The notes beneath the pieces were generated by a model. It was not told the DNA's origin. It saw only the letters and a program-made list of their open reading frames with translations, and ran no database searches. This document shows positions 1 through 51,920 of a stretch of 64,000 nt of DNA, one piece after another. The position numbers were made by a program, and so were the translations under genes. Origin of the DNA: Thiotrichaceae bacterium UBA4486 (GTDB taxonomy: Bacteria; Pseudomonadota; Gammaproteobacteria; Eutrophobiales; Eutrophobiaceae). Positions within the stretch are counted from its first letter, which is position 1; the number at the start of each line of letters is the position of its first letter. The stretch is from NCBI GenBank assembly GCA_002389045.1, contig DGNS01000015.1, positions 376,894 to 440,893 on the forward strand. The letters are read 5' to 3'.

Positions 1-112
1 ATTCGTCAAATTCCTTCTTATTCCCCACAGACGGATGCTGCTTGATGAAGCGTTTCAGCTTCTTGGGATCGTCTTTGACTTCTTCCAGGGAGATGTATTT
101 ACCTGTGGACAT
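1..112 (-). CDS. Hypothetical protein, 5' part only (N-terminus MSTGKYISLEEVKDDPKKLKRFIKQHPSVGNKKEFDE...). The gene continues past the left edge of the window.
   Basis: The reverse strand of 1-112 reads as an open frame starting at ATG 112..110. That ATG lies directly after the stop (TAG 115..113) of the upstream minus-strand gene. The region is low in GC. Confidence 0.35.
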   Translation of the reverse strand, partial: MSTGKYISLEEVKDDPKKLKRFIKQHPSVGNKKEFDE

Positions 113-619
113 CTATTTAAATACCTCGTTTTCAAAATAGCTTCTTAGGCTTTCTATTGTAACAAGTGTATTTCGATTTACATTTTGACCGCCAGGGGGA
201 TTAACAGTTGTTATTAGTTGCCTGGATGCGCTAGCTTTTAATTTTCTAAAACATAAGTGCCTATTAACAGATCCCTCTTCTCGTGTGTTCGCCCATATTG
301 CCGCAGCTGTTGGTAAGTCTATCATTGGATACCCAGAATTCTCGTATCCATCCAGCTCCCCGAGTATTCTATTCTTTTCTGATAATGTTCCTATCTTGGC
401 CGCAGCGTAATCCCACCCCTTAATGCCGTGATATATAAATGCCATCGCAAGCGCCGCAACACCCGTAGTCATATATATGATGGATGACCAGGGCTGCCCC
501 TCGATTAGCGAGGTCAAGAGCGTCCCCGCAGAGGGGATGCCAACCCCAGAAAACCATATCCACCCCGATACTGATCGGAAGAACTGCCCCGCTTTCCCGA
601 GATTCGAGAAAATGTCCAT
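113..619 (-). CDS. Hypothetical 168-aa protein with two predicted N-terminal transmembrane helices and a soluble C-terminal domain of about 100 aa.
   Basis: ORF in the six-frame track. A GGGGGTGG Shine-Dalgarno lies 4-5 nt upstream of the ATG at 619. Hydrophobic stretches VSGWIWFSGVGIPSAGTLLTSLI and SSIIYMTTGVAALAMAFIY. GC is about 40% against about 60% in the surrounding DNA. I recognise no family. Confidence 0.5.
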   Translation of the reverse strand: MDIFSNLGKAGQFFRSVSGWIWFSGVGIPSAGTLLTSLIEGQPWSSIIYMTTGVAALAMAFIYHGIKGWDYAAAKIGTLSEKNRILGELDGYENSGYPMIDLPTAAAIWANTREEGSVNRHLCFRKLKASASRQLITTVNPPGGQNVNRNTLVTIESLRSYFENEVFK

Positions 620-912
620 AATCCACCCCCTGCTCTCAGGTTAGCCCATATAGCACGGTATGTGCTATTGAGAGAGCATTTCCAGATGGGTAGATTCATG
701 GATTACCTCATTTATTTGAGGTATTCATCTCTCCACCCATGTAGTGCCCTATTATAGGACATAATACATGAGCAGAGGGGATAAACACCCATATGGATCC
801 CCCTCCGTTTATGTACCCGGATTATTGGCTGGCTGATATGGCTTTATGACGTAATTGCGGGTCACGACCGGCAGCCCGCGAATTATCCAAAAAGCCTATC
901 CAGGCAGCGGAT

Positions 913-1599
913 CTAGGGAGCGGGCGGTTTCGGCGGATTGGTCGGACTGACGCCGGGAGCGGGCGGTTTCGGCGGATTGGTCGGGCTGACGCCGGGAGCG
1001 GGTGGCTTCGGCGGATTGAGTGGGCTTACCGTATTGGGATCCTGCCCCTGCGGGGAATCAATGAGGACGGATTCACGCTGGAGGTGAAAGGTGACCGCTG
1101 ATGATCGGAGCAGCTCCTCTCCCTCATCGTCGATGACTGAGGCATACAGCCGGTGTGTGCCACGGTCAAGTTCAGTCAATGTAAATGACGTCTCCGAACC
1201 TTCCCCTACGAGTTGTGAATCCAGGTAGAGTTTGACTCGATCCTGTTTTCTCAGGCGCGGCTCGACTTTTACCTCGACACTGATATCACCCGCATTGGCC
1301 CGGATTGCTTCATCATTGCCCGGGCTGGTGATCATAAGACCGGAATACCAACCGGATTTCGAAGTTTCCCTTTTTGTGTATTCGAATTTCGCATTAGTTT
1401 CCGCCGGTACGGTCTGTACATCCCCTACATCGATGGACTCGGAACCAACCGATGGTTCGTCGGAAAACACCGGGTTACCGTCCGCATCGTAGGAACGGTA
1501 AATACTGGTTTCAGCCATCAGTTGGCCGCCAGACAGCAACAGGACGCAATAAAGGAGAGTTCGCATATTGGTAAAGATACTGTGTTTTCTTGTTTTCAT
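913..1599 (-). CDS. Secreted DUF4124-domain protein with a proline-rich C-terminal tandem repeat.
   Basis: Signal peptide MKTRKHSIFTNMRTLLYCVLLLSGGQLMA followed by ETSIYRSYDADGNPVFSDEPS, a motif typical of DUF4124. C-terminal PAPGVSPTNPPKP repeats. Alternative starts at 1566 and 1668; none has a clear Shine-Dalgarno. Confidence 0.6.
   Translation of the reverse strand: MKTRKHSIFTNMRTLLYCVLLLSGGQLMAETSIYRSYDADGNPVFSDEPSVGSESIDVGDVQTVPAETNAKFEYTKRETSKSGWYSGLMITSPGNDEAIRANAGDISVEVKVEPRLRKQDRVKLYLDSQLVGEGSETSFTLTELDRGTHRLYASVIDDEGEELLRSSAVTFHLQRESVLIDSPQGQDPNTVSPLNPPKPPAPGVSPTNPPKPPAPGVSPTNPPKPPAP
916..1032. repeat. In-frame 39-bp tandem repeat, about 2.7 copies, encoding (PAPGVSPTNPPKP)n at the C-terminus of the DUF4124 protein.
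   Basis: Direct repeats gggagcgggcggtttcggcggattggtcgg(a/g)ctgacgcc at 916-954 and 955-993, with a degenerate third copy from 994. They match the C-terminal protein repeats SPLNPPKPPAPGV/SPTNPPKPPAPGV. Confidence 0.8.
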
Positions 1600-1754
1600 A
1601 AACGATTTGATTAGCACAACGAAGATTAATTCTCGACAGGATCGTGAACCATCCCCGCACGTGTTCACTGCAAATATTCCGGCTCAGTTCTAACTGATTG
1701 AAATTTGTAAATTAATTAAGATACAACACGGTGAGGTGTAGTGTCTGTTTTGAT

Positions 1755-1783
1755 AATAAAAAAGCCCCCTTGCGGGGGCTTTC
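1755..1783 (-). terminator. Rho-independent terminator downstream of glnA.
   Basis: Hairpin gccccc-ttgc-gggggc at 1764-1779, followed on the minus strand by a T-run (the plus strand shows taaaaaa before the stem). It sits 25 nt after the glnA stop. Confidence 0.65.
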
Positions 1784-1806
1784 CACAATGAAGTGTGAAT
1801 CAATGC

Positions 1807-3216
1807 CTACAGGCTGTAGTACATATCGAACTCCGCCGGATGGGTCGACATGCGCATGCGCGTGACTTCTTCCATTTTCAGCTTGATATAACCATCGATC
1901 ATATCGTCGGAGAACACACCACCGGCCTTGAGAAACTCCCGGTCTTTGTCCAGTGCGTTCAACGCGATATCGAGCGCGTGAGCCACGGTCGGAATGTCTC
2001 TTTCTTCTTCCGGTGGCAGGTCGTAGAGGTCCTTGTCCAGCGGACCGCCCGGATCGAGCTTGTTCTGAATGCCGTCCAGTCCGGCCATCATCATGGCCGC
2101 AAAGGCGAAATAGGGATTGCCGCAGGAATCCGGAAAACGCACCTCGATGCGCCGGGCCTTGGGGCTGGACACCCAGGGAATACGGCAGGATGCCGAGCGA
2201 TTGCGGGCTGAATAAGCCAGCAGGACCGGGGCCTCGAAGCCCGGAACCAGGCGCTTGTAGCTGTTGGTGCTGGCATTGGTAAAAGCGTTGAGAGCCCTGG
2301 CGTGCTTGAAAATACCGCCGATGTAGTTCAGGGCCAGTTCGGACAAGCCGCCGTACTGATCACCGGCGAACAGGTTTTCTCCGCCCATGGCCAGCGATTG
2401 GTGTACGTGCATGCCGTTACCGTTATCGCCAACCAGGGGTTTGGGCATAAAGGTCGCTGTCTTGCCGAAGCCGTGGGCAACGTTCTGCACAACGTACTTG
2501 AGGATAAGGCTTTCATCCGCCTTGCGGGTCAGGGTATTGAATCGGGTGCCGATTTCCGCCTGCCCGGCCGTCGCTACCTCGTGGTGATGTACCTCGACGC
2601 CGACGCCCATTTCCTCGAGGATCTGGCACATGGCGCTGCGGATATTCTGCATGGAGTCTACCGGCGGGACGGGGAAGTATCCTCCCTTGACCCCGGGACG
2701 ATGACCGATATTGCCTTCTTCGCCAAGCAGTTCGCTGTTCCAGCTGCCTTCGTTGGAATCCACTTCGTAGAAGGCCATGTTCACGTCATCGCCCCAGCGC
2801 ACGTCGTCAAAGATGAAAAACTCGGGTTCCGGGCCGAAGTAGGCCGTATCGGCGATACCCGTGGATTTCAGGTAGGCTTCCGCACGCTTGGCCAGTGAGC
2901 GGGGGTCGCGCTCGTAGCCCTGCATGGTGCTGGGTTCGAGTACGTCGCAACGGATGATGACGGTCGGATCGTCGTAGAAAGGATCGAGAACGGCTGTCTC
3001 CGTATCAGGCATCAACACCATGTCGGATTCATTAATACCTTTCCAGCCCGCGATCGAGGAACCGTCAAACATTTTGCCGTTTTCAAAAAAATCATCATCA
3101 ATGGTGGATGCGGGTATGGTGACATGCTGCTCCTTGCCCTTGGTGTCACAAAAGCGCATATCCACAAATCCGGCCTCGCTTTCCTTCAGCAGCGATTTCA
3201 CTTGTTCTTTGGACAT
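1807..3216 (-). CDS. glnA: Glutamine synthetase type I.
   Basis: 469-aa product ([35 protein letters not shown]...) with GSI hallmarks throughout. AGGAGA Shine-Dalgarno upstream of the ATG at 3216. Confidence 0.95.
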
Positions 3217-3328
3217 CTTGATTTCTCCTGGTGTTAGAGTGTTCGGGAAAACAGTTGGCCGCGTTCGCTGGCTGCCCTCCCTGCGGTTGAAGTAACTTAA
3301 GAAGTGTTAAGTTCTGAGCTATCCGTGG

Positions 3329-3344
3329 TGCATGATGTGTGCCA
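3329..3344 (-). promoter_or_regulatory. Sigma54 (-24/-12) promoter for glnA, of the glnAp2 type.
   Basis: The minus strand reads TGGCAC-acatc-ATGCA, which has GG-N10-GC spacing against the consensus TGGCAC-N5-TTGCA. It lies about 115 nt upstream of the glnA ATG. Confidence 0.55.
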
Positions 3345-3406
3345 CTCGTCCAGCATTATAAACTCATTCTCGATCAAGCACCTACGGTGTTAATCCGTCG
3401 ATTTAA

Positions 3407-3454
3407 AGCACTATTATAGTGCATCATATCTTTCTTATGCATGATATTAGTGCA
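3407..3454 (-). promoter_or_regulatory. Two NtrC-type enhancer sites upstream of the sigma54 promoter.
   Basis: aGCACtattataGTGCA at 3407-3423 is a perfect dyad that fits TGCAC-N7-GTGCA. TGCATgatattaGTGCA at 3438-3454 is a second copy with one mismatch. Their centres are about 72 and 103 bp upstream of the -24 element. Confidence 0.5.
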
Positions 3455-4118
3455 AATCGATTTCACCGAATACGCACAGGTGCCGGTCGGACAGAATTTC
3501 GACTGTCAGATAGCCCAATCCCGCCTCATGAAGTTGATCGTTCACCTCGGCGGGAGTAAACGCCGCCAGCAGGGAATGGTAAAAGTCGCGCTGCAATATG
3601 TCAGGCGAGTCGGCAGCGTATGCCTTGACGTATTTTCGGGCTTCTTTCGTGCTTCGGGGACGCATCAGGTCCATGATGAAAATTCCGGTGCCCTGACGGC
3701 ACAGTGAAATGAGACACTCCCAGAGTGTCGCGGGTGAGTGCAGGTGGTGCAACAGGCTGTTACAGATGATGAGATCATAGTGTGCGTTGGGCAGCTGCAG
3801 TTGCGGCAGATTCTGTTCAAACGTCATGATGCGATCCTCCAGCCCTGCGCCGGCAATGGCCCTGGCGGCTTCAGCCAGCATGGTCGCTGCGCCGTCAACG
3901 GCATGCACAATGGCATCCGGGAAGCGCCGGGCAAAACGAATGCTGATATCCGCCGGGCCACAGCCGAGATCCAGTACACTGCGGGCCTTGTTCGCCGCGG
4001 GCAGGCGATCGCACAAGGCCTCAATGAACATGTTATGCGGCTCGCTGAAGTCGGCCTGCGCGTAGGCCAGTACCTGATCGGGGTCATTCATGAGTTCCGG
4101 TTCGGTGATGCGTTTCAT
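3447..4118 (-). CDS. Class I SAM-dependent methyltransferase.
   Basis: VLDLGCGPADISIRFARRF (glycine-rich motif I) together with the acidic motif II LICNSLLHH. Its start ATG overlaps the lysA stop as ATGA. Confidence 0.8.
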   Translation of the reverse strand: MKRITEPELMNDPDQVLAYAQADFSEPHNMFIEALCDRLPAANKARSVLDLGCGPADISIRFARRFPDAIVHAVDGAATMLAEAARAIAGAGLEDRIMTFEQNLPQLQLPNAHYDLIICNSLLHHLHSPATLWECLISLCRQGTGIFIMDLMRPRSTKEARKYVKAYAADSPDILQRDFYHSLLAAFTPAEVNDQLHEAGLGYLTVEILSDRHLCVFGEIDLH

Positions 4119-5365
4119 TCCGGCAGCAGCGTTTCGTGCTGAAACAACTCCTCGAGGGTTTCGCGGCGGCGGACGAGCCAGGTTTGTGCGCCGTCCACCA
4201 TGACCTCGCTGGCCCGCGGCCGGGAATTGTAGTTGGAACTCATGCTATAGCCGTAGGCGCCGGTGGAACAGACCGCGAGCAGATCACCCTGGCGCAGTGA
4301 CAGGTGTCTTTTCCTGCCGAGGAAATCCCCGGTTTCGCACACTGGCCCGACCACATCGTAATCGGCGGTCAGGCCATCGGAGGCTTCGCTGACCGGCAGG
4401 ATGGCGTGCCAGGCATCGTACAGCGAGGGCCGGATCAGATCGTTCATGGCGGCATCGACGATGGCAAAATGGTGGCCGTCGTTGTGCTTCAGGTATTCGA
4501 CCCGGGTCAGCATGACGCCGGCATTGCCGACAATAGAGCGTCCCGGTTCGATGATGATCTCGATATTGCGCTTTTCGAACAGGGTGCGGATGGCGCTGAC
4601 ATAGTCGCCCGGAGCCGGTACCCGGGTATCCATGTAGGGAATGCCCAGGCCGCCGCCGACATCGATGTGCTGTATGTGTATGCCCTGCTGTTCAAGGGCA
4701 TCGAGTAACCCGAGCAGACGGGCGAGGGCATCCTGAAACGGTGTCAGTGTCGTGATCTGGGATCCGATATGACAATCGATTCCGATCACATTGATGCCGG
4801 GCATGGCGGCAGCGTCCTGGTAGGTCGATAGCGCTGCCGCGTATTCAATGCCGAATTTGTTTTCCTTCAGGCCGGTGGCAATATAGGGATGCGTGCCGGC
4901 GTCGACATCCGGGTTAACCCGGATGGAAACGGGAGCCACAGTACCCGTTTCCAGGGCGATATCGTTGATGCGAGCCAGTTCGGCTACGGATTCCACGTTG
5001 AAACAGCGAATGCCGCATTCAAGCCCGCGTGCGATTTCATCATGCCGCTTGCCGACCCCGGAAAAGACCACTCGGGAAGGATCGCCGCCGGCGCGGATCA
5101 CTCGTTCCAGTTCACCAATCGAAACGATGTCAAAACCGGAACCCAGTCGTGCCAGCAGATTCAGGATTGCGAGGTTGGAGTTGGCCTTGACGGCATAACA
5201 GATAAGATGCGGCAATTTGCCGAAGGCGCGGTCGAAAGCCTGCCACTGCGTTTCTATGGCATGACGGGAGTAGACAAATACCGGCGTGCCGTAAGCTTCA
5301 GCCACGGCGGACAGCGGCATGGACTCGAGACAGAGTTCGCCGTCCCTGTATTCCGGTGCGCGCAT
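4115..5365 (-). CDS. lysA: Diaminopimelate decarboxylase.
   Basis: MRAPEYRDGELCLESMPLSAVAEAYGTPVFVYSRHAIETQW..., PLP-binding YAVKAN, and a C-terminal CETGD...GAYG motif. I chose the start at 5365 by alignment to Pseudomonas LysA. The track ORF extends further to 5494. Confidence 0.9.
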   Translation of the reverse strand: MRAPEYRDGELCLESMPLSAVAEAYGTPVFVYSRHAIETQWQAFDRAFGKLPHLICYAVKANSNLAILNLLARLGSGFDIVSIGELERVIRAGGDPSRVVFSGVGKRHDEIARGLECGIRCFNVESVAELARINDIALETGTVAPVSIRVNPDVDAGTHPYIATGLKENKFGIEYAAALSTYQDAAAMPGINVIGIDCHIGSQITTLTPFQDALARLLGLLDALEQQGIHIQHIDVGGGLGIPYMDTRVPAPGDYVSAIRTLFEKRNIEIIIEPGRSIVGNAGVMLTRVEYLKHNDGHHFAIVDAAMNDLIRPSLYDAWHAILPVSEASDGLTADYDVVGPVCETGDFLGRKRHLSLRQGDLLAVCSTGAYGYSMSSNYNSRPRASEVMVDGAQTWLVRRRETLEELFQHETLLPE

Positions 5366-5372
5366 GACCAGG

Positions 5373-5516
5373 TCAGGTATGCTGGCGGTACAACCCGTCG
5401 CTCGCGGCGGATTGTTCGGGGAGATACAGATCACCTTTCTGGCCGCAGGCACTGATGCCGAACAGGCAAACGAGCAGTGTGATGGCCGAAGCAATTCTTG
5501 CCAGGTGTCTTTGCAT
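5373..5516 (-). CDS. lptM: LPS-assembly lipoprotein LptM (YifL family).
   Basis: MQRHLARIASAITLLVCLFGISACGQKGDLYLPEQ. This has a lipobox (ISAC) and the YifL signature CG.KG.LY.P. It sits upstream of lysA as in other gammaproteobacteria. GGGGA Shine-Dalgarno. Confidence 0.75.
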   Translation of the reverse strand: MQRHLARIASAITLLVCLFGISACGQKGDLYLPEQSAASDGLYRQHT

Positions 5517-5713
5517 AATGGTTATCCCCGATGTATCAGCTGTGCAGAATAGCAAATAATTACGCCGGAAAAAATCAGCAAGCTCCTGAATCAATCACAG
5601 GATCCCTGTACTGTCGCCTGTGTCTGCCGCGATAGCTGTCGTGGACAATTCCTGGATGAATTATTCGCTACTTCCTGAGATCATGGCGCTTTGAAAAAAA
5701 ACACGACCCGCTC

Positions 5714-6382
5714 ATGTCCGAAGCAGAAAACCCGTTAATCATCCAGCCCACCGCCGGGCATACAGCCACTGTCATCTGGCTGCACGGCCTCGGCGCCGAC
5801 GGCAGCGATTTTGCGCCCATCGTGCCGGAGTTGAAACTGCCGGTGAAGAACGGCACCCGGTTTATTTTTCCGCACGCGCCGAGGCGCAGCATCACCATCA
5901 ACGGCGGTATGGTCATGCGCGGCTGGTATGACGTCAGGGCCATGGATTTGACGGTGAACGAGGACGCGGCCGGAATCGAGTCATCGGCGGCATTGCTGAC
6001 GGAGTTGCTGGATCGCGAGACGCGTCAACTGGACAGCGATCGCGTTATCCTGGCCGGTTTCTCGCAGGGTGGGGCCATGGCCCTGCATACCGGTTTACGC
6101 TACCGGCAACGACTGGCGGGGATGATGGCGCTGTCCGCCTATCTGCCGTTGTCTGACCGCCTGGCCGAGGCCGATGGCGGCAGTAATCGCGCCACGCCGA
6201 TATTGATGATGCACGGTGTTTACGATCCGGTGATCCCGCTGCGGACTGCCGAGCAGTCCTGCGCCCTGTTACGGGCTCGTGAATACCAGGTCGAGTGGAG
6301 CCAATACGCCATGCAGCATGCGGTGTGTCCACAGCAGATTGACGATATCAGCCAGTGGATGTCGCGGGTGCTGTCAGCCTGA
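5714..6382 (+). CDS. Alpha/beta-hydrolase carboxylesterase / phospholipase (YpfH-like).
   Basis: VIWLHGLGADGSDF...GFSQGGAMAL...H. This is the Ser-Asp-His esterase pattern of the phospholipase/carboxylesterase family. Confidence 0.8.
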   Translation: MSEAENPLIIQPTAGHTATVIWLHGLGADGSDFAPIVPELKLPVKNGTRFIFPHAPRRSITINGGMVMRGWYDVRAMDLTVNEDAAGIESSAALLTELLDRETRQLDSDRVILAGFSQGGAMALHTGLRYRQRLAGMMALSAYLPLSDRLAEADGGSNRATPILMMHGVYDPVIPLRTAEQSCALLRAREYQVEWSQYAMQHAVCPQQIDDISQWMSRVLSA

Positions 6383-7642
6383 AGTGGATTTATGGTGATG
6401 ACGGCGTTTGGATTCGTGACCGCTTCTTCGCCGCGGTGGTTTGCGGTCCGATTTGATTTTCGCCGGTGGTTCGGGCGTTACCAGCAGATCGCCGGTGACC
6501 TGAAGGGTCGGGATCTTCTGACCGAGCAATTCCTCGATTTCGATCAGTGAATAGACAAATTCCTCGCAGGCGAAACTGACGGCGATACCACTGGCGCCGG
6601 CGCGTGCGGTGCGGCCGACGCGGTGCACGTAATCCTCGGCGTTTTGCGGCATGTCAAAATTAAAGACGTGACTGACATCCGGGATGTGCAGTCCACGCGC
6701 GGCGAGATCCGTGGCTACCAGTAAATCCAGTTCACCCTCGGAGAATTCCCGGAACAGGCGCTGGCGCTTTGTCTGCGGCACATCGCCGGAGAGAATGGCC
6801 GCCTTGTAGCCGTTACCAATCAGGTAGGCGTTGACTTTCTCGGCGGTGCGCTTGGTGTTGACGAAGATAATGGTACGCGTCTGACCGGTGTGTTTCAGCA
6901 GACCCAGCAGCAACTGTATTTTCTCGTCTTTGCCGACGTGATAAAGCTCCTGGCGAACCTTGTCGGCCGTGACTTTTTCCGGATTGATCTTGATGAATTG
7001 CGGATTGTTCATGTGTTCGTAGGCCAGTTCCATGACCCGGTAACTCAGCGTTGCCGAAAACAGCATGCCCAGACGCTCCTCCGGTTTCGGGCAACGCCGT
7101 AACAGAAAGCGAATGTCCTTGATAAAGCCGAGATCAAACATGCGGTCAGCTTCATCCAGGACCACGGCCTCGATGGCATTCAGGTGGTAGGATTTCTGCC
7201 GGTAGTAATCGATCAGCCGGCCGGGCGTGCCGATAAGAACATCCACGGGCTGCTCAAACCGGTCCTGCTGTTTCTGGTAATCGACGCCGCCGTAGACCAG
7301 GGCCGTGGTCAGCGGGGTGAACGGTATCAGGGTCTGCGCATCCTTGTGAATTTGTATGGCCAGTTCCCGGGTCGGCGAAATGACAATGGCGCGGGGAGCG
7401 CCCGCCCGGGTAGTCTTGCCGCTGGTCAGGAGTTGATGCATGAGGGCGAGCAGGAATGCGGCGGTCTTGCCGGTTCCGGTCTGTGCCTGACCGGCGACGT
7501 CTTTTTTATCCAGAAGCAGCGGCAGGCATGCGGCCTGAATGGGCGTGCAGTATTCAAAACCCACCTGTTCAATGGCCTGCAACAATCGCGGCTCCAGGGG
7601 GAATTCCGGAAATTTTACCGGTGAAAGGCTGGTCTGATCCAT
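6374..7642 (-). CDS. rhlB: ATP-dependent DEAD-box RNA helicase RhlB.
   Basis: Helicase motifs: Q-motif, [15 protein letters not shown] and HRVGRTAR. Conserved neighbourhood rhlB-trxA-rho. Ends in a basic, His-rich C-terminal tail. Overlaps the esterase convergently by 9 nt. Confidence 0.85.
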
Positions 7643-7729
7643 CAGGCGCTCATTCTTTGCAGTATGGGTATGGCTGACTTACAATCCGCACAGTTCAATA
7701 GTGATTCTTCGAGAGGTTTCATAAATATA

Positions 7730-8056
7730 ATGAGTGACAAAATAATTCATGTTACAGACTCCAGCTTTGAAGAGGAAGTCCTCAAATCAGACAAGCCGGT
7801 ACTATTGGATTACTGGGCAGAATGGTGCGGACCCTGCAGGATGATTGCCCCTATCCTCGAAGAAATCGCCGATGAGTACGGCGACAGGGTCACCGTGGCC
7901 AAGATCAATATTGATGAAAACCAGGAGACACCACAGAAATACGCCGTCCGCGGCATACCCACGCTGATGATCTTCAAGGAAGGTAATGTGGCTGGAACCA
8001 AGGTCGGGGCCTTGTCCAGGTCACAGCTGTCCGCGTTCATTGACAGCACCCTCTGA
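7730..8056 (+). CDS. trxA: Thioredoxin 1.
   Basis: [45 protein letters not shown]... with the WCGPC active site. Confidence 0.92.
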
Positions 8057-8215
8057 ATTCACTGGACGTCATTTGGATTACATGCTAGATTTTGTTACAA
8101 ATAAGCTCAGAAACCTGTCTTCTGCACGTTCCCCATAAACTGATTTTTTTTACTAGATAGATCGTTTTTCGCGGCCTTTCCCGGGCCCGTTACTTACCGT
8201 CCTGTATTGGAGGCC

Positions 8216-9472
8216 ATGAATCTCACAGAACTCAAACAGCAACCTGCGTCTGAACTGATCACCCTTTCCGAATCCCTGGGACTTGACGGTCTCGCACGTT
8301 CCCGCAAGCAGGACGTCATATTCGAAATACTCAAAGCCCAGGCTAAAAAAGGTGAGGACATCTACGGCGACGGTGTGCTTGAAATCCTGCAGGATGGTTT
8401 CGGGTTCCTGCGTTCCGCGGGCAGTTCCTACCTGGCCGGTCCCGATGATATTTATGTCTCTCCCAGCCAGATACGACGCTTCAATCTACGCACCGGTGAT
8501 AACGTTGCCGGCAAGATCCGCCCGCCCAAGGACAGCGAACGCTATTTTGCCCTGCTCAAGGTGGCCGAGATCAATTTTGAGCCACCGGAGAAAGCCAAAC
8601 ACAAGATCCTGTTTGAAAACCTCACCCCGCTGTTTGCCCAGGATCGACTTAAACTGGAAATCGGCAACGGCAGCACCGAGGATCTGACGCCGAGGATCAT
8701 CGACCTGGCTTCACCCATCGGCAAAGGGCAGCGCGGTCTCATCGTATCGCCGCCGAAAGCCGGCAAGACCATGATCCTGCAAAGCATTGCCCAGTCCATC
8801 ACCACCAACCATCCCGAATGTCACGTTATAGTTTTGCTCATCGACGAGCGGCCTGAAGAGGTCACCGAGATGGAACGGTCCGTGCGCGGTGAAGTGATTT
8901 CATCCACCTTCGATGAACCGGCCAGCCGCCATGTACAGGTGGCCGAAATGGTCATCGAGCGGGCCAAGCGTCTGGTCGAACATAAAAAGGATGTGGTGAT
9001 CCTGCTCGATTCCATCACCCGTCTGGCGCGGGCTTACAACACCGTGGTGCCGGCCTCCGGCAAGGTGCTGACCGGTGGTGTCGACGCTAACGCCCTGCAA
9101 CGACCGAAGCGGTTTTTCGGCGCGGCGAGAAATATCGAGGAAGGTGGTAGCTTGACCATTCTCGCCACGGCGCTGGTGGATACCGGTTCACGGATGGATG
9201 ACGTCATCTACGAGGAATTCAAAGGTACCGGCAACATGGAGTTGCACCTGGAACGCGAAATCGCTGAAAAGCGCATTTACCCGGCCATCAACATCAATCG
9301 TTCGGGCACGCGTAAGGAAGAGGTTTTATGCGATGCCGATGAGTTACAGAAAGTCTGGATCCTGCGCAAACTCCTGCATCCCATGGAGCCCATCGCGGCC
9401 ATGGAGTTTCTCCTCGAGCGTCTCAAGGGCACCAAGAATAATGCCGAATTCTTTGATGCCATGAAGCGGTAG
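8216..9472 (+). CDS. rho: Transcription termination factor Rho.
   Basis: [17 protein letters not shown]... is collinear with E. coli Rho over its whole length. ATG at 8216 is preceded by GGAGG. The track ORF starts at TTG 8207. Confidence 0.95.
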
Positions 9473-9530
9473 TTATCGGATCAGTCCGGAATCCGGATCC
9501 CCGCAAGTTGGTTGTCCAGGGTCACCAAAA

Positions 9531-10178
9531 TCAGTTCAGTGCATTAATTCGCCTCAATTTATCCGCCAGCGGCAGGCGGTAGAAACGCCGCAATTCCCTG
9601 AGCATGTTCCGCGAATCATCCCGGTGAATGTACAGCCTTTCCAGCGCCCGGCAGTACTTGCCGGCATAGTGGTTGGCGCACTGGTAACGCTCAAGTTCCT
9701 GCATATGAAGATCGGCGTGAAAATCCACCGTATCAAACAGCAGCTTGCGGATTTCCCGGCTTTTAACCCGGCTCGTCTGTTCGGATGAATACATGTGCAT
9801 GAGAACAAACTTGTCGATCTCGGCCTGTAACTCAAGCTCGATAAGTGAAACGGAGCGGTCGTACTCACCGTGCCATACGAGTTTGAGAAAATGACTGATA
9901 CCTTCCGTGGCCAGACAGAAGTCTTCAACGTTACCGCTGTGCAAACCCTGTTCCGGGTTATCGTCCAGCAGATGCGTGACAATATCGGCGTGCAGGTAAA
10001 CGGTAATGTCCAGATGTTCATCAAGTTCACTGATGAACACGGTTTCCCGCAAGTGACTTGATCCGCCGGTGAGCAGGTTCTTTACCGCTTCATCCGATAC
10101 CAGGAAATCCGCGACCGCATGTCCGGTTTCAATTTCGTAAATCGATTGCAGCCGTTGTTGCAGCTGGTGTATGGCCAT
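9531..10178 (-). CDS. Hypothetical 215-aa acidic, His-rich protein. Second gene of the coupled pair.
   Basis: Its ATG at 10178 lies 2 nt from the upstream stop (TGA 10183..10181). I recognise no family. Confidence 0.55.
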   Translation of the reverse strand: MAIHQLQQRLQSIYEIETGHAVADFLVSDEAVKNLLTGGSSHLRETVFISELDEHLDITVYLHADIVTHLLDDNPEQGLHSGNVEDFCLATEGISHFLKLVWHGEYDRSVSLIELELQAEIDKFVLMHMYSSEQTSRVKSREIRKLLFDTVDFHADLHMQELERYQCANHYAGKYCRALERLYIHRDDSRNMLRELRRFYRLPLADKLRRINALN

Positions 10179-10180
10179 AC

Positions 10181-10807
10181 TCAGTGACGCAGACCGGGGC
10201 CGGCAATCGGCACAATACCTTCTCGTTGCAGACGCTCGGCTGCCAGCCGACTGCCTGTCTGCTGCCAGATTTCGTATAGTCGCATGATGTCGCGGTTATT
10301 CCCGCAGTTCATCTGTTCCCCGACCTCGGTAAGGATGTCGATTGCAGCTATAAATTTATCGGCCAGCTCATTGAAGATTTCACAAAAAGCCTGGCTGTTG
10401 AATGTATTCCGGCTGTTAGTGGCGAGATAACTGTAGGCATTGCCACCCATGGCGACATAGTAATCCACATCCACGAGGCTGCGATGCAGGCTGTAGGAAA
10501 ACAGACCGGAAACAAACAGGGACAGATCACCCAGTCGCTTCAGGCAGACGATGCGTTCCCTGCGCGTTCTGGCTTCGACCGCCTCGGCATAGATCATCGC
10601 CAGTGCCGGTGTGCTGTTACCCTCGGCGTGTTTATCGAAAAGCTTGCTGGTCCGGGTAAAATCAGTAAGCAGGTTGGCAAGATAAAAAACAGTTTCCGGC
10701 AACATATCCTGGCGCTGGCGCTCGACTGCCCTGTTGACACTGTCCTGGAAGTATTCCCGCAAACCGGTTTGGCTGATCAGGCGTTCTCGTTCAGATAAAT
10801 CATTCAT
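10181..10807 (-). CDS. Hypothetical 208-aa protein. First gene of a coupled pair.
   Basis: Clean ORF with typical GC. Its stop lies 2 nt from the start of the next gene. I recognise no family. Confidence 0.55.
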   Translation of the reverse strand: MNDLSERERLISQTGLREYFQDSVNRAVERQRQDMLPETVFYLANLLTDFTRTSKLFDKHAEGNSTPALAMIYAEAVEARTRRERIVCLKRLGDLSLFVSGLFSYSLHRSLVDVDYYVAMGGNAYSYLATNSRNTFNSQAFCEIFNELADKFIAAIDILTEVGEQMNCGNNRDIMRLYEIWQQTGSRLAAERLQREGIVPIAGPGLRH

Positions 10808-10966
10808 AACCCCGTTGCTCCGAAATGTGAAATGATATTACCCAAAGTAAACTCTGATGAATCTGTTCAGAGTCCCATATCTATATTCAGCGGAACATTA
10901 CCCGCATTACTTTAAAAGCTATACAGGTTATTGAGTTTTGTGAAGTTAGCAGTCACGGGGGAATGC

Positions 10967-11090
10967 TGATAACAGACTACAGACTACAGACTACAGACGA
11001 CAGATAACAGATAACAGTGAAGCGGGTGTCTGGCTTCAGGCTGACGGCGACCATATTTGGTGAACGTTGAACGGTGAATGGTGAACGGGA
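10967..11090. repeat. Heptanucleotide microsatellite arrays: (AGACTAC)3-(AGACGAC)-(AGATAAC)2, then (G/T)TGAA(C/T)G x4, then TGGGGA x2.
   Basis: Tandem 7-mers at 10968-11017 and at 11060-11087. They lie in the intergenic region between the 10807 start (its promoter side) and the groEL terminator. Confidence 0.7.
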
Positions 11091-11107
11091 TAGTGGGGAA
11101 TGGGGAT

Positions 11108-11140
11108 AAAAAAAGCCCCGCTTCGTGCGGGGCTTTTTTA
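11108..11140. terminator. Bidirectional rho-independent terminator (groEL 3' end).
   Basis: aaaaaaa-GCCCCGC-ttcgt-GCGGGGC-tttttta. It is flanked by an A-run and a T-run, so it can act on either strand. It sits 25 nt after the groEL stop. Confidence 0.75.
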
Positions 11141-11164
11141 CGAACCTTAACAGCAGATGGCGAA

Positions 11165-12829
<1,665 letters not shown>

Positions 12830-24737: not shown

Positions 24738-25850
24738 ATGCCGAAGTATACGGGTAATCCCGATTACCAACACGACTCGATACCCCGCATCGGGATCCTC
24801 ATGACCAATCTCGGTACGCCGGATGCACCCACGGCGGCGGCCCTGCGTAAATACCTGGCGGAGTTTCTCGCCGATCCGCGCGTCATCGAGGTTCCGAAAA
24901 TACTCTGGTGGCCGGTATTGCACGGCATTATCCTGCGTACCCGCCCGCGCCGCTCGGCGGAAGCCTATGAAAAAGTCTGGACATCCGAAGGTTCACCCCT
25001 GCTGGCCATCACCCGCAGGCAGGGTGATGCGGTGCAGCGTCTGCTTCGTGAACGCCTTGGCGATAGCGTGAAAGTGGTAATCGCCATGCGCTACGGTGAA
25101 CCGTCCATCCGCCAGGGACTGGAGGAATTGCGCGCCGCCAACGCCCGCAGGATCCTGTTGTTGCCACTGTATCCGCAATACGCGGCGGCAACCACGGCAT
25201 CCACCTTTGATGCCGTCAGTGCCGTGCTGAAAACCTGGCGCTGGCTGCCCGGTCTGCGCATGATCGATCATTACCATGATGATCCTGGCTACATTTCGGC
25301 ACTGGCCGCCGCCATTGAGCGACATCAGGCCACACACGGCAGACCGGACAGACTGATCTTTTCCTTTCACGGTATTCCACGTCATTACTTCGACGCCGGT
25401 GATCCCTATCATTGTGAATGTCAGAAAACCGCGCGCCTGGTTGCGGAAAAAATGCAACTGGGTGATAACGACTGGCAGTTGACGTTTCAGTCGCGTTTCG
25501 GACCGCGTGAGTGGTTACAACCCTATACCGATGTCACGCTGAAAGGGCTGCCCGCACAGGGTGTCCGGCATGTCCAGGTTGTCTGTCCGGGCTTTGCCGC
25601 CGACTGTCTGGAAACACTGGAAGAAATCAATATGCAGAACCGGGAATTTTTCATCAACGCCGGCGGTGAAACATTTTCCTATATACCGGCCCTGAACGAT
25701 GACGAATTGCACATCCAGGCGCTCGCTGATCTGATCACACTGCATCTCGGCGGCTGGATTAACGAAGATGATCAACCCTCGCCGGAATCCCTTGCACAGT
25801 CCGGTGCAACGAGCCGCCAGCGCGCGCTGTCAATGGGTGCAAAAAACTGA
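24738..25850 (+). CDS. hemH: Ferrochelatase.
   Basis: MPKYTGNPDYQHDSIPRIGILMTNLGTPDAPT...FSFHGIP...QSRFGP. This is collinear with HemH. Confidence 0.9.
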   Translation: MPKYTGNPDYQHDSIPRIGILMTNLGTPDAPTAAALRKYLAEFLADPRVIEVPKILWWPVLHGIILRTRPRRSAEAYEKVWTSEGSPLLAITRRQGDAVQRLLRERLGDSVKVVIAMRYGEPSIRQGLEELRAANARRILLLPLYPQYAAATTASTFDAVSAVLKTWRWLPGLRMIDHYHDDPGYISALAAAIERHQATHGRPDRLIFSFHGIPRHYFDAGDPYHCECQKTARLVAEKMQLGDNDWQLTFQSRFGPREWLQPYTDVTLKGLPAQGVRHVQVVCPGFAADCLETLEEINMQNREFFINAGGETFSYIPALNDDELHIQALADLITLHLGGWINEDDQPSPESLAQSGATSRQRALSMGAKN

Positions 25851-25860
25851 ATCGTCATTT

Positions 25861-25888
25861 GCGGATTTCGTTGAAACTGCCGGGGTTC
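25861..25888 (+). promoter_or_regulatory. Sigma70 promoter upstream of cspA, giving a long 5' UTR.
   Basis: TTGAAA (25861-25866), a 16-nt spacer, then TATAAT (25883-25888). This would give a 5' UTR of about 150 nt, as is usual for cold-shock mRNAs. Confidence 0.45.
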
Positions 25889-26043
25889 CGGCTATAATCG
25901 AATTAGCTTATAAAAATCCAGGCCATGGTTTATGTCGTGCATCACGAAGTCCCGCCAGCAGTTCCTCGTAGTGTATTGCATAATGATTAACCGGTTTTTT
26001 ACAGGCGAAAATGCTTCAATCAAGTGCAATACAGGATAATATA

Positions 26044-51008: not shown

Positions 51009-51920
51009 ATGATAAGGCAACGCACGCTTAAGAATGCCATACGGGCAACCGGGGTCGGATTACACACTGGCAAAAAAGTCTTCCTGACCCTGCGGCCGAG
51101 TCCTCCCGATACGGGGATTATTTTCAGGCGCACGGACCTGGATGAGCAGGTTGAAATCAAGGCCTGTCCGGATAATGTCGGCGATACCCAGTTGTCCACC
51201 ACGCTTGTCAACGGGGATGCCCGGATTTCCACGGTAGAACACCTGTTATCGGCATTGGCGGGTTTTGGCATCGACAATGCCTACATTGATGTCAGTGCCG
51301 ACGAAGTGCCGATTATGGATGGCAGCGCCGGACCGTTTGTTTTTCTCATCCAGTCCGCCGGCGTCGTTGAACAGAATGCGCCCAAGCAGTTCATGCGCAT
51401 TCGCAAACCGGTAAAAGTCGAGGAAGATGACAAGTGGGCGCGTTTCGAGCCCTTTGACGGTTTCAAGGTGGGCTTCACTATCGAATTCAATCACCCCGTC
51501 TTTCATGAAGAAAACTGTCACGCCGAGATCGATTTTTCAACCACCTCTTTTGTCAAGGAAGTCAGTCGCGCCCGTACCTTCGGCTTCATGCGAGAAGTTG
51601 AATTGCTGCGCGAACGCAACCTCGCCCTGGGCGGCAGTCTCGACAACGCCGTTGTTGTGGATGATTACCGCATTCTGAACGAAGACGGGTTACGATATGA
51701 TGACGAGTGTGTGAAACACAAGATCCTCGACGCTATCGGTGATTTGTATCTGTTGGGGCACAGCCTGATCGGCGCCTTTCATGGTCACAAGTCCGGTCAT
51801 GCGCTTAATAATCACCTGTTGAGAGAATTGCTGGCTGATGAGGATGCCTGGGAACTGGCTACATTTGATGATGAACGGATGTTGCCGATTTCCTTCATGC
51901 AGGCCTTATCAGCAACCTGA
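51009..51920 (+). CDS. lpxC: UDP-3-O-acyl-N-acetylglucosamine deacetylase.
   Basis: [24 protein letters not shown]... is collinear with E. coli LpxC. Confidence 0.95.

Follow-up and report, generated by a model that had tools for sequence, protein, structure and literature searches.

The DNA analyzed in this study (hereafter the window) comprises 64,000 nucleotides (nt) of contig DGNS01000015.1 from Thiotrichaceae bacterium UBA4486 (assembly GCA_002389045.1, positions 376,894 to 440,893 of the forward strand). At its left edge two minus-strand open reading frames (ORFs) lie end to end: one, termed ORF-X, encodes a 168-amino-acid (aa) protein with two transmembrane (TM) segments, and the other, a small ORF, runs off the window. 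Our analysis suggests that window positions 1-789 are, with high probability, the left, cargo-bearing end of a transporter insertion sequence (IS) of the IS1595 family, 2,693 base pairs (bp) long. The features found at this locus, including the transposase gene located left of the window on the metagenome contig L001, are as follows.

1-112, minus strand: first 37 codons of the small conserved accessory ORF (full ORF 53 aa, MSTGKYISLEEVKDDPKKLKRFIKQHPSVGNKKEFDELLGRMAKNQPPKKSSK, L001 10508-10669)
113-619, minus strand: ORF-X, 168 aa, with a TM hairpin, a stalk helix and a predicted cytoplasmic domain of about 70 aa that is weakly winged-helix-like
626-631, minus strand: Shine-Dalgarno sequence AGGGGG, identified by inspection, 6 nt before the ATG at 617-619
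704-723, minus strand: hairpin with a 7-bp stem and a 6-nt loop (UACCUCA-AAUAAA-UGAGGUA), in the leader that separates the inverted repeat from the start codon of ORF-X
765-789, no strand: left terminal inverted repeat, GGTGT-TTATCCCCTCTGCTCATGTA on the element strand
790-797, no strand: one copy of the 8-bp target-site duplication, CATATGGA on the plus strand and TCCATATG on the element strand
798-912, no strand: host intergenic DNA downstream of the DUF4124 gene, outside the element and its target duplication, where GC content rises
913-1668, minus strand: DUF4124-domain gene of the host flank (Pfam DUF4124, 24.2 bits), downstream of glnA (1807-3216)
L001 11601-12452, strand opposite to the pair: convergent transposase of the IS1595 family, 283 aa

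The stop codon TAG of ORF-X (113-115) abuts the ATG of the small ORF (110-112) with zero spacing. The two-TM ORF, this TAG-ATG junction, the Shine-Dalgarno sequence and the hairpin had been described in an earlier reading of the sequence (the original prediction), and all are present.

Composition, boundaries and insertion site of the element

Comparison of all 900-nt windows across the stretch (mean GC 56.5%, standard deviation 3.5%) revealed the lowest GC content at positions 1-900, with 45.8% against 56.4% for the whole window. The drop is real and non-random. The original prediction had put it at about 40% against about 60%, which overstates it: 37-41% is reached only by 200-nt stretches. 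The right edge of the low-GC islet had likewise been set at 900, whereas the foreign DNA stops at 789, and GC content climbs to 0.62-0.66 from about 800 rightward. Over its full length the element has a GC content of 44.1%, compared with 55.4-55.7% in its flanks. A comparison with core genes, which had been proposed as a check, gave the same picture at third codon positions (GC3), with 0.45 for the 168-aa gene and 0.36-0.55 for the genes of the element, against 0.67-0.72 for glnA, ntrB, ntrC, rho, lysA and hemB. Further local GC minima (0.49-0.50 over 900 nt) are located at about 25,350-25,900, 7,450-7,600, 10,200-10,300 and 51,650-51,800 of the window.

An exact look-up of the 168-aa protein retrieved 12 contigs. 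The longest, L001 (116 kb), agrees with window 1-10619 with 0 mismatches, and the leftward extension that it provides is therefore reliable; the same 3 kb is found at 100% identity in two more assemblies. The second gene of the pair, cut by the window edge, was recovered from this extension as an ORF of 53 aa.

The boundaries of the element in L001 were reached through a sister element, L086, which is 1,594 bp long and lies between sdhE and cptA. The L086 element has 25-nt inverted repeats (CGCGATTATCCCCTTGGGGCATGTA and TACATGTGTCAAGGGGATAATCGCG, 88% complementary) and is flanked by the 8-bp direct repeat GAAAAATT. In L001 the element occupies 9831-12523, and the part of it inside the window is window 1-789. 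Its inverted repeats are also 25 nt long and imperfect, 9831-9855 and 12499-12523 agreeing at 16 of 25 positions with the cores TTATCCC and TCATGTA; the partner repeat at 12499-12523 reads TACATGATGTAAAGGGATAA-TTGCG. The 20-nt repeat core has one occurrence in the window, with 0 expected by chance. Copies of TCCATATG flank the element at L001 9823-9830 (window 790-797) and at 12524-12531, left of the window. A third element, L094, is 1,612 bp long, is flanked by TCCGCTGA and has inverted repeats that agree at 21 of 25 positions. The three elements have a common end geometry, in which the 8-bp repeat is followed by 5 nt and then by TTATCCCC...CATGTA. In L001 and L086 a second, subterminal copy of the end is present on the transposase side. 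An internal repeat, ATAGGCACTACA, might have pointed to a composite element but is too short to support one. The ends GGnnTTTAT and CGCGATTAT presumably fit the consensus of the ISNwi1 group, ggnnatTAT, and this group is probably the closest one within the IS1595 family.

The insertion site is the spacer between the DUF4124 gene and ntrB, with glnA and the DUF4124 gene on one side and ntrB and ntrC beyond the transposase. The same synteny without the insertion was found in the two nearest GTDB genomes (L006 and L007), a Gammaproteobacteria metagenome-assembled genome (MAG) with NtrB 65% identical and a Thiocapsa MAG with NtrB 47% identical. Both keep the DUF4124 gene followed by ntrB-ntrC, with an uninterrupted spacer of 230-325 nt, and in the Thiocapsa MAG glnA lies upstream of the DUF4124 gene. 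Whether the pair is variably present in related genomes had been proposed as a check; both relatives lack it at this position. Because of the boundaries, the composition and the empty sites in relatives, the islet is an IS1595-family insertion and not a native operon. The view that it was horizontally acquired is thus borne out by inverted repeats, a target duplication, a transposase and relatives without the insertion; the insertion sequence itself had not been anticipated.

The transposase matches the Pfam models DDE_Tnp_IS1595 (PF12762, 123.9 bits, cut-off 27) and Zn_ribbon_IS1595 (PF12760, 31.9 bits, cut-off 25.4) and the NCBIfam model NF033547 for IS1595 (212.4 bits, cut-off 75). The DDE domain, the zinc ribbon, the terminal inverted repeats and the 8-bp duplication that define the IS1595 family are thus all present. 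Five ORFs other than the transposase lie between the repeats, in keeping with a transporter IS, which is an IS derivative carrying passenger genes (PMC9330008, PMC7986276). Such genes have no part in transposition, as may hold for the ORF-X and small-ORF pair. The IS1595 family has served as the case used to discuss the transporter-IS frontier (Siguier 2009, as cited in PMC7986276).

Some further observations concern the flanks. The cargo is co-oriented with glnA-DUF4124 and lies nearest to these genes, and the transposase is convergent (window 790-3216, L001 12524-15157). About 150 nt of the region upstream of ntrB are left, including TGCACTAAAATAGTGC, which resembles an NtrC-type site. The C-terminus of the DUF4124 protein carries PTNPPKPPAPGVS, encoded by three tandem 39-nt repeats (window 913-1030, minus strand, local GC 0.62-0.66); the gene is called as a 201-aa version in other assemblies. 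No Rfam family was matched in window 1-1000, and no terminator-like site was found on the coding strand.

The accessory gene pair in the IS1595 clade

Four independent elements (L001, L086, L092/L093 on a phage-like contig, and L094) have one layout: a member of the two-TM family, an ORF of 49-58 aa after 0-1 nt, and a convergent IS1595 transposase overlapping tail to tail. The elements measure 1.6-2.7 kb. Compared in pairs, the four two-TM proteins are 25-47% identical, the small proteins 48-63% and the transposases 55-67%. The L086 member of the two-TM family (P0004), about 47% identical, is the closest distant homologue of the 168-aa protein. The conserved pair in four elements agrees with the earlier description of two coupled genes.

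A wider survey covered 72 distinct metagenomic loci encoding the small protein. Among the 50 loci with at least 900 nt of downstream sequence, a convergent IS1595 transposase was found downstream in 46; in 38 of these it overlaps the small ORF by 26-98 nt, and the other eight carry 364-999 nt of extra cargo. Among the 57 loci with at least 450 nt of upstream sequence, 51 have a complete upstream ORF ending no more than 45 nt from the small-ORF start, and a strongly hydrophobic 19-mer occurs within the first 140 residues of 45 of these 51 ORFs. The gap between ORF-X and the small ORF ranges across the clade from about -29 to +36 nt. The family found in the window accounts for one of 68 upstream ORFs, and the others are extremely diverse: the membrane ORF is hypervariable and the small ORF constant. 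Judged by these sequences, one IS1595 clade has the pair as its conserved accessory operon. In L120 (706-1176) the upstream ORF encodes an ImmA/IrrE M78 peptidase (Pfam 80 bits; PADLOC capP 95 bits) instead of a membrane protein. M78 peptidases are normally partnered by a small DNA-binding repressor.

The small protein is basic, with the consensus MxxGKYLSLEEARKxKKLDRFAKEHPSKGDKKxFDxLLxRMAK. Its family comprises at least 819 clusters at E <= 0.01, none with a Pfam domain, and Pfam searches with 56 homologues gave only sub-threshold noise. In the four elements its motif F(D/E)xLLGRM mirrors the C-terminus of the transposase, MF(E/D)RLL(G/K)xF (L001 10610-10626 and 11611-11627); the likeness may be mimicry of the transposase tail, or chance.

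The 168-aa protein belongs to a rare and unannotated family, with 71 representatives at E <= 1e-3 in an exhaustive profile search. About 45 of these are 160-190 aa long with the same architecture; longer relatives (272-665 aa) share only the C-terminal domain, which follows TM segments of their own. Hydrophobic 19-mers occur at residues of about 17-39 and 43-66. Positive charges precede the first helix (K9, R15) and follow the second (K67, K75), and the connecting loop EGQPW has none, which suggests, by the positive-inside rule, an N-in/C-in topology with the C-terminal domain in the cytoplasm. The AlphaFold2 model from a 50-sequence alignment (predicted local distance difference test score, 94.3) consists of a helical hairpin (3-39/44-94), the second helix of which is prolonged as a stalk, and a beta-alpha-alpha-beta-alpha domain (99-166) with a basic helix at 118-132. 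The most conserved positions are A106, W109 and K128, and the family motif is IDxPTAAAIWAGT...RHLxFRxLKxA. Foldseek gave weak matches, mostly to winged-helix domains (best E 0.22). A gene call of 119 aa (P0002) was rejected as a truncated start, the N-terminus being conserved in homologues from residue 4.

Comparison with the L004 homologue (79% identical) gave a proportion of nonsynonymous differences (pN) of 0.135 and of synonymous differences (pS) of 0.81, the latter saturated; the ratio of nonsynonymous to synonymous rates (dN/dS) between L004 and L005 is 0.30. By these substitution patterns the 168-aa gene is under purifying selection. The leader hairpin is stable when a 51-nt segment is folded (-14.5 kcal/mol, z = -3.6), and 0 of 200 shuffled sequences were as stable. 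It is probably dispensable, because the sister element L086 has no hairpin and only 23 nt between its left repeat and the start codon.

Neither the 168-aa nor the 53-aa protein matched Pfam, NCBIfam, PADLOC or PHROGs, and a sequence search of the PDB with alignments of both found nothing meaningful. Pfam searches with 50 aligned members of the 168-aa family gave sub-threshold matches only (SieB, Plectin and DUF6887 noise, counted together with the small-protein set). Among 10 long relatives there was no significant Pfam match except pentapeptide repeats in one N-terminus, and PADLOC matched neither the window protein, nor its compact relative P0004, nor nine of the long relatives. Scans of viral, metagenome and genome collections with a three-sequence alignment gave no relatives, and the 168-aa protein had no tblastn match in plasmid and phage records. 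A word-indexed protein search with the 50-sequence profile gave at least six proteins. A motif, EWFxTLDxVPxPR...REHDxxxxKLDxLI, forms a second shuffled C-terminal module, found in ORF-X of L175 (1984-3000) and after the window-type domain in the long relatives P0044, P0049 and P0060. This module indicates, at the level of sequence, domain swapping among these membrane proteins.

Extra cargo and copies apart from the insertion sequence

In the L001 element, 931 bp of extra cargo separate the small gene from the transposase, and a genuine Doc toxin module lies within the same element just past the window edge. The cargo consists of a 79-aa ORF beginning 3 nt after the 53-aa ORF, a Fic/Doc protein of 129 aa overlapping the 79-aa ORF by 14 nt, and a 65-aa ORF on the other strand. 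The Doc assignment follows from TIGR01550 (55 bits, cut-off 38.65), from Pfam Fic (41.9 bits, cut-off 24) and from the motif HxFx(D/N)(A/G)NKR, present as HGFTDGNKR. The 79-aa ORF, the putative Doc antitoxin, matched no Phd/YefM or other antitoxin model in Pfam and NCBIfam; the 65-aa ORF is homologous to it (54% identity over 37 aa, E 2e-10). In this cargo (L001 10673-11486) the 79-aa ORF holds two copies of the motif RDxxTG(R/K)F(I/V), and a third relative of the two ORFs is located in the cargo slot of L154. The same slot is occupied in other elements by PemK/MazF (L101, 3213-3638; L104, 1001-1426) and by SocA/Panacea with a 128-aa ORF of no named family (L102, 392-1339).

The nearest plasmid-borne IS1595 transposases, 45-47% identical, have other convergent neighbours (L096 3512-3835, L097 3466-4056). 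One neighbour is a 107-aa protein with a CRISPR_Cas2 match in Pfam of 23.5 bits, below the cut-off of 23.8, and is VapD-like by eye; the other is an unrelated two-TM protein of 196 aa with no Pfam match, whose sequence looks coiled-coil. The annotation has no small GKYLSLEE protein beside these plasmid transposases.

Members of the two families also occur apart from the IS. A member of the 168-aa family lies in a phage contig near terminase and structural genes (L087), where the small ORF is absent, and another in an island that also carries integrase and DUF3987 genes (L090/L091), with the small ORF absent from L090. Two relic copies (L004 and L005) have no transposase nearby, and their small ORF is cut after about 12 codons. 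Around these relic genes there are repeats (GTCCGCTTTCGCTGGAAAGCAGACGTTC...) of the type of repetitive extragenic palindromic sequences or miniature inverted-repeat transposable elements (L004 1-100 and 1100-1197; L005 1393-1460 and 1780-1820). Those at the contig ends of L004 are perfect inverted copies over about 95 nt, which points to a foldback element or else to an artefact of assembly. Among 2.9 million viral contigs, 11 relatives of the small protein and none of the 168-aa family were found.

Several of these results count against reading the pair as the cargo of a transporter IS. Intact genes of the 168-aa family exist without the small ORF (L004, L005, L087, L090), and in one phage (L174/L183) an ORF-X and small-ORF pair with no transposase is flanked by integrase and tail genes. 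Since both partner-less and transposase-less copies exist, the accessory genes are not strictly bound to the IS. Target duplications were read in three of the four independent elements (L001, L086 and L094), whereas that of L092/L093 was sought and not identified. The coding strand of window 1-1000 showed no sigma-70-like promoter, and neither accessory protein has a family match or a significant structural match.

Possible roles of the accessory pair

The literature searched on IS1595, ISNwi1 and ISPna2 passenger genes yielded only general definitions of transporter ISs, and neither the small protein nor the membrane ORF was found described in it. The element shares with IS1595 ISs carrying passenger genes the zinc-ribbon and DDE_Tnp_IS1595 domains, short inverted repeats, an 8-bp duplication and extra genes inside. 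It differs from them in its conserved accessory operon, a variable membrane ORF and a protein of about 50 aa convergent with the transposase, and in the Doc toxin module of this copy. Its third and fourth genes, a small ORF overlapping a Fic/Doc protein, resemble Doc/Phd type II modules; however, this module is located beyond the window edge and is distinct from the pair of the original prediction, its 79-aa ORF has no antitoxin model, and it has the opposite-strand 65-aa homologue. With SLATT two-TM effectors, which had been put forward as one possibility, the 168-aa protein has in common its small size, two N-terminal TM helices, a place in mobile DNA and an adjoining partner gene. Here, in contrast, the predicted cytoplasmic C-terminal domain is conserved and not the TM hairpin, and no nucleotide-signalling or sensor gene is adjacent. 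The comparison with SLATT found no support: the window protein has no Pfam match at E <= 1, SLATT is not among the Pfam matches (E <= 0.1) of 50 family members, and PADLOC gave no match. Superinfection-exclusion proteins (P22 SieB, HK97 gp15, T4 Imm) are alike by analogy only, as small, diverse inner-membrane proteins encoded by accessory genes of mobile elements; there is no homology, only two of 50 members touch Pfam SieB (E 0.047), and most copies of the module studied here are in insertion sequences, not phages.

For the element as a transporter IS, the following mechanism is proposed. The transposase would recognise the TTATCCCC...CATGTA ends and mobilise the whole unit, leaving 8-bp duplications. 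ORF-X and the small ORF would be translationally coupled, and their expression would probably come by read-through from an upstream host gene, which is co-oriented in five of six contexts inspected, or else from a promoter within the left end. Most likely the small protein is a regulator acting on a constant part of the element, either the DNA at its ends or the transposase. This is suggested because the small protein diverges about as slowly as the transposase and co-varies with the ends and the transposase, not with ORF-X. ORF-X would be exchangeable cargo with a membrane tether, which here may hold a basic winged-helix-like domain at the cytoplasmic face of the inner membrane, and it would probably serve the element by exclusion, defence or maintenance, rather than by catalysing transposition.

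A native low-GC host operon, with the 168-aa protein as a small membrane regulator of the glnA-ntrBC region, is scarcely credible. The genes do lie between, and co-oriented with, glnA, the DUF4124 gene and ntrBC, but inverted repeats and a target duplication enclose them along with a transposase gene, they are missing at this position in L006 and L007, and homologues occupy sites with no relation to this one, for example between sdhE and cptA or in phage genomes. This explanation is refuted by the boundaries of the element and by the relatives that lack the insertion. A toxin-antitoxin or addiction system, in which ORF-X would be a membrane toxin and the small basic protein its antitoxin and repressor, stabilising the element, would account for the tight TAG-ATG coupling, and the cargo slot does gather such genes (Doc here, PemK/MazF in L101 and L104, Panacea in L102). 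The MazF-like gene of L101 and L104 starts about 50 nt after the small ORF; because no other ORF of at least 40 aa precedes it, the small protein is in the position of an antitoxin there. The M78 peptidase that serves as ORF-X in L120 is likewise of a class usually found with a small DNA-binding partner. Nevertheless, neither protein matches a toxin or antitoxin family in Pfam, NCBIfam or PADLOC, and one conserved antidote for unrelated ORF-X domains ill fits specific neutralisation. Toxins of such systems should not occur as orphans, yet 168-aa homologues are intact where the partner is truncated (L004, L005) or absent (L087, L090). An obligate toxin-antidote pair is for this reason disfavoured, and the addiction reading as a whole appears quite unlikely.

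Phage defence or superinfection exclusion, in which the membrane protein would sense or block incoming phage DNA or protein and the variability of ORF-X would reflect an arms race, is somewhat less improbable, though still doubtful. Moron-like positions in phages and islands agree with it (L087 with terminase, L090/L091 with integrase and DUF3987, L092 in a RecT/NinB/Lar phage, L174 with integrase and tail genes), as do the extreme diversity of ORF-X with its membrane anchor kept and the basic, winged-helix-like character of the predicted cytoplasmic domain. The PADLOC searches speak against it: apart from the negative results for the 168-aa family, the M78 peptidase of L120 (capP) was the only strong match among 10 sampled ORF-X proteins. 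The scarcity of both families in viral contigs points the same way. The original suggestion of a toxin/immunity or phage-defence module is thus not upheld by PADLOC, Pfam, PHROGs or NCBIfam, nor by the intact partner-less homologues. That both proteins are accessory factors of transposition, acting in membrane localisation, target choice or inhibition of the transposase, is a tentative possibility and the least unlikely of these alternatives. The small ORF almost always adjoins the 3' end of the transposase gene (46 of 50 loci) and mostly overlaps it, the small protein is about as conserved as the transposase, and its F(D/E)xLLGRM motif resembles the MF(E/D)RLL of the transposase C-terminus. 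On the other hand, a catalytic or structural partner would not usually vary in sequence as ORF-X does, other genes adjoin the nearest plasmid IS1595 transposases, and the pair is also found without a transposase.

At the level of the window, the result is an ordinary one, a cargo-bearing insertion sequence between glnA and ntrBC. The insertion may block read-through from glnA into ntrBC and so uncouple transcription of the nitrogen regulator from glnA. The element is apparently an unregistered IS1595-family transporter IS of a known kind. Beyond routine annotation, only the two accessory families and the size and regularity of the clade have potential, and the wider interest is modest: it lies in a large IS1595 clade of which nearly every copy has a conserved small protein and a diverse membrane-anchored ORF, and in which one slot has taken up toxin-antitoxin genes (Doc, MazF, Panacea) more than once. 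It is conceivable, though rather improbable, that the hypervariable membrane protein and its conserved partner of about 50 aa form an undescribed, widespread cassette, either a new IS-borne conflict or exclusion system or a control of transposition by membrane tethering. As a conflict system, its variable cytoplasmic domain may recognise invaders, with the small protein as the common regulator. If the accessory operon regulates transposition or excludes competitors or phages, a functional layer would be added to a very common IS family, and with a defined role for the operon two 'dark' protein families would gain names.

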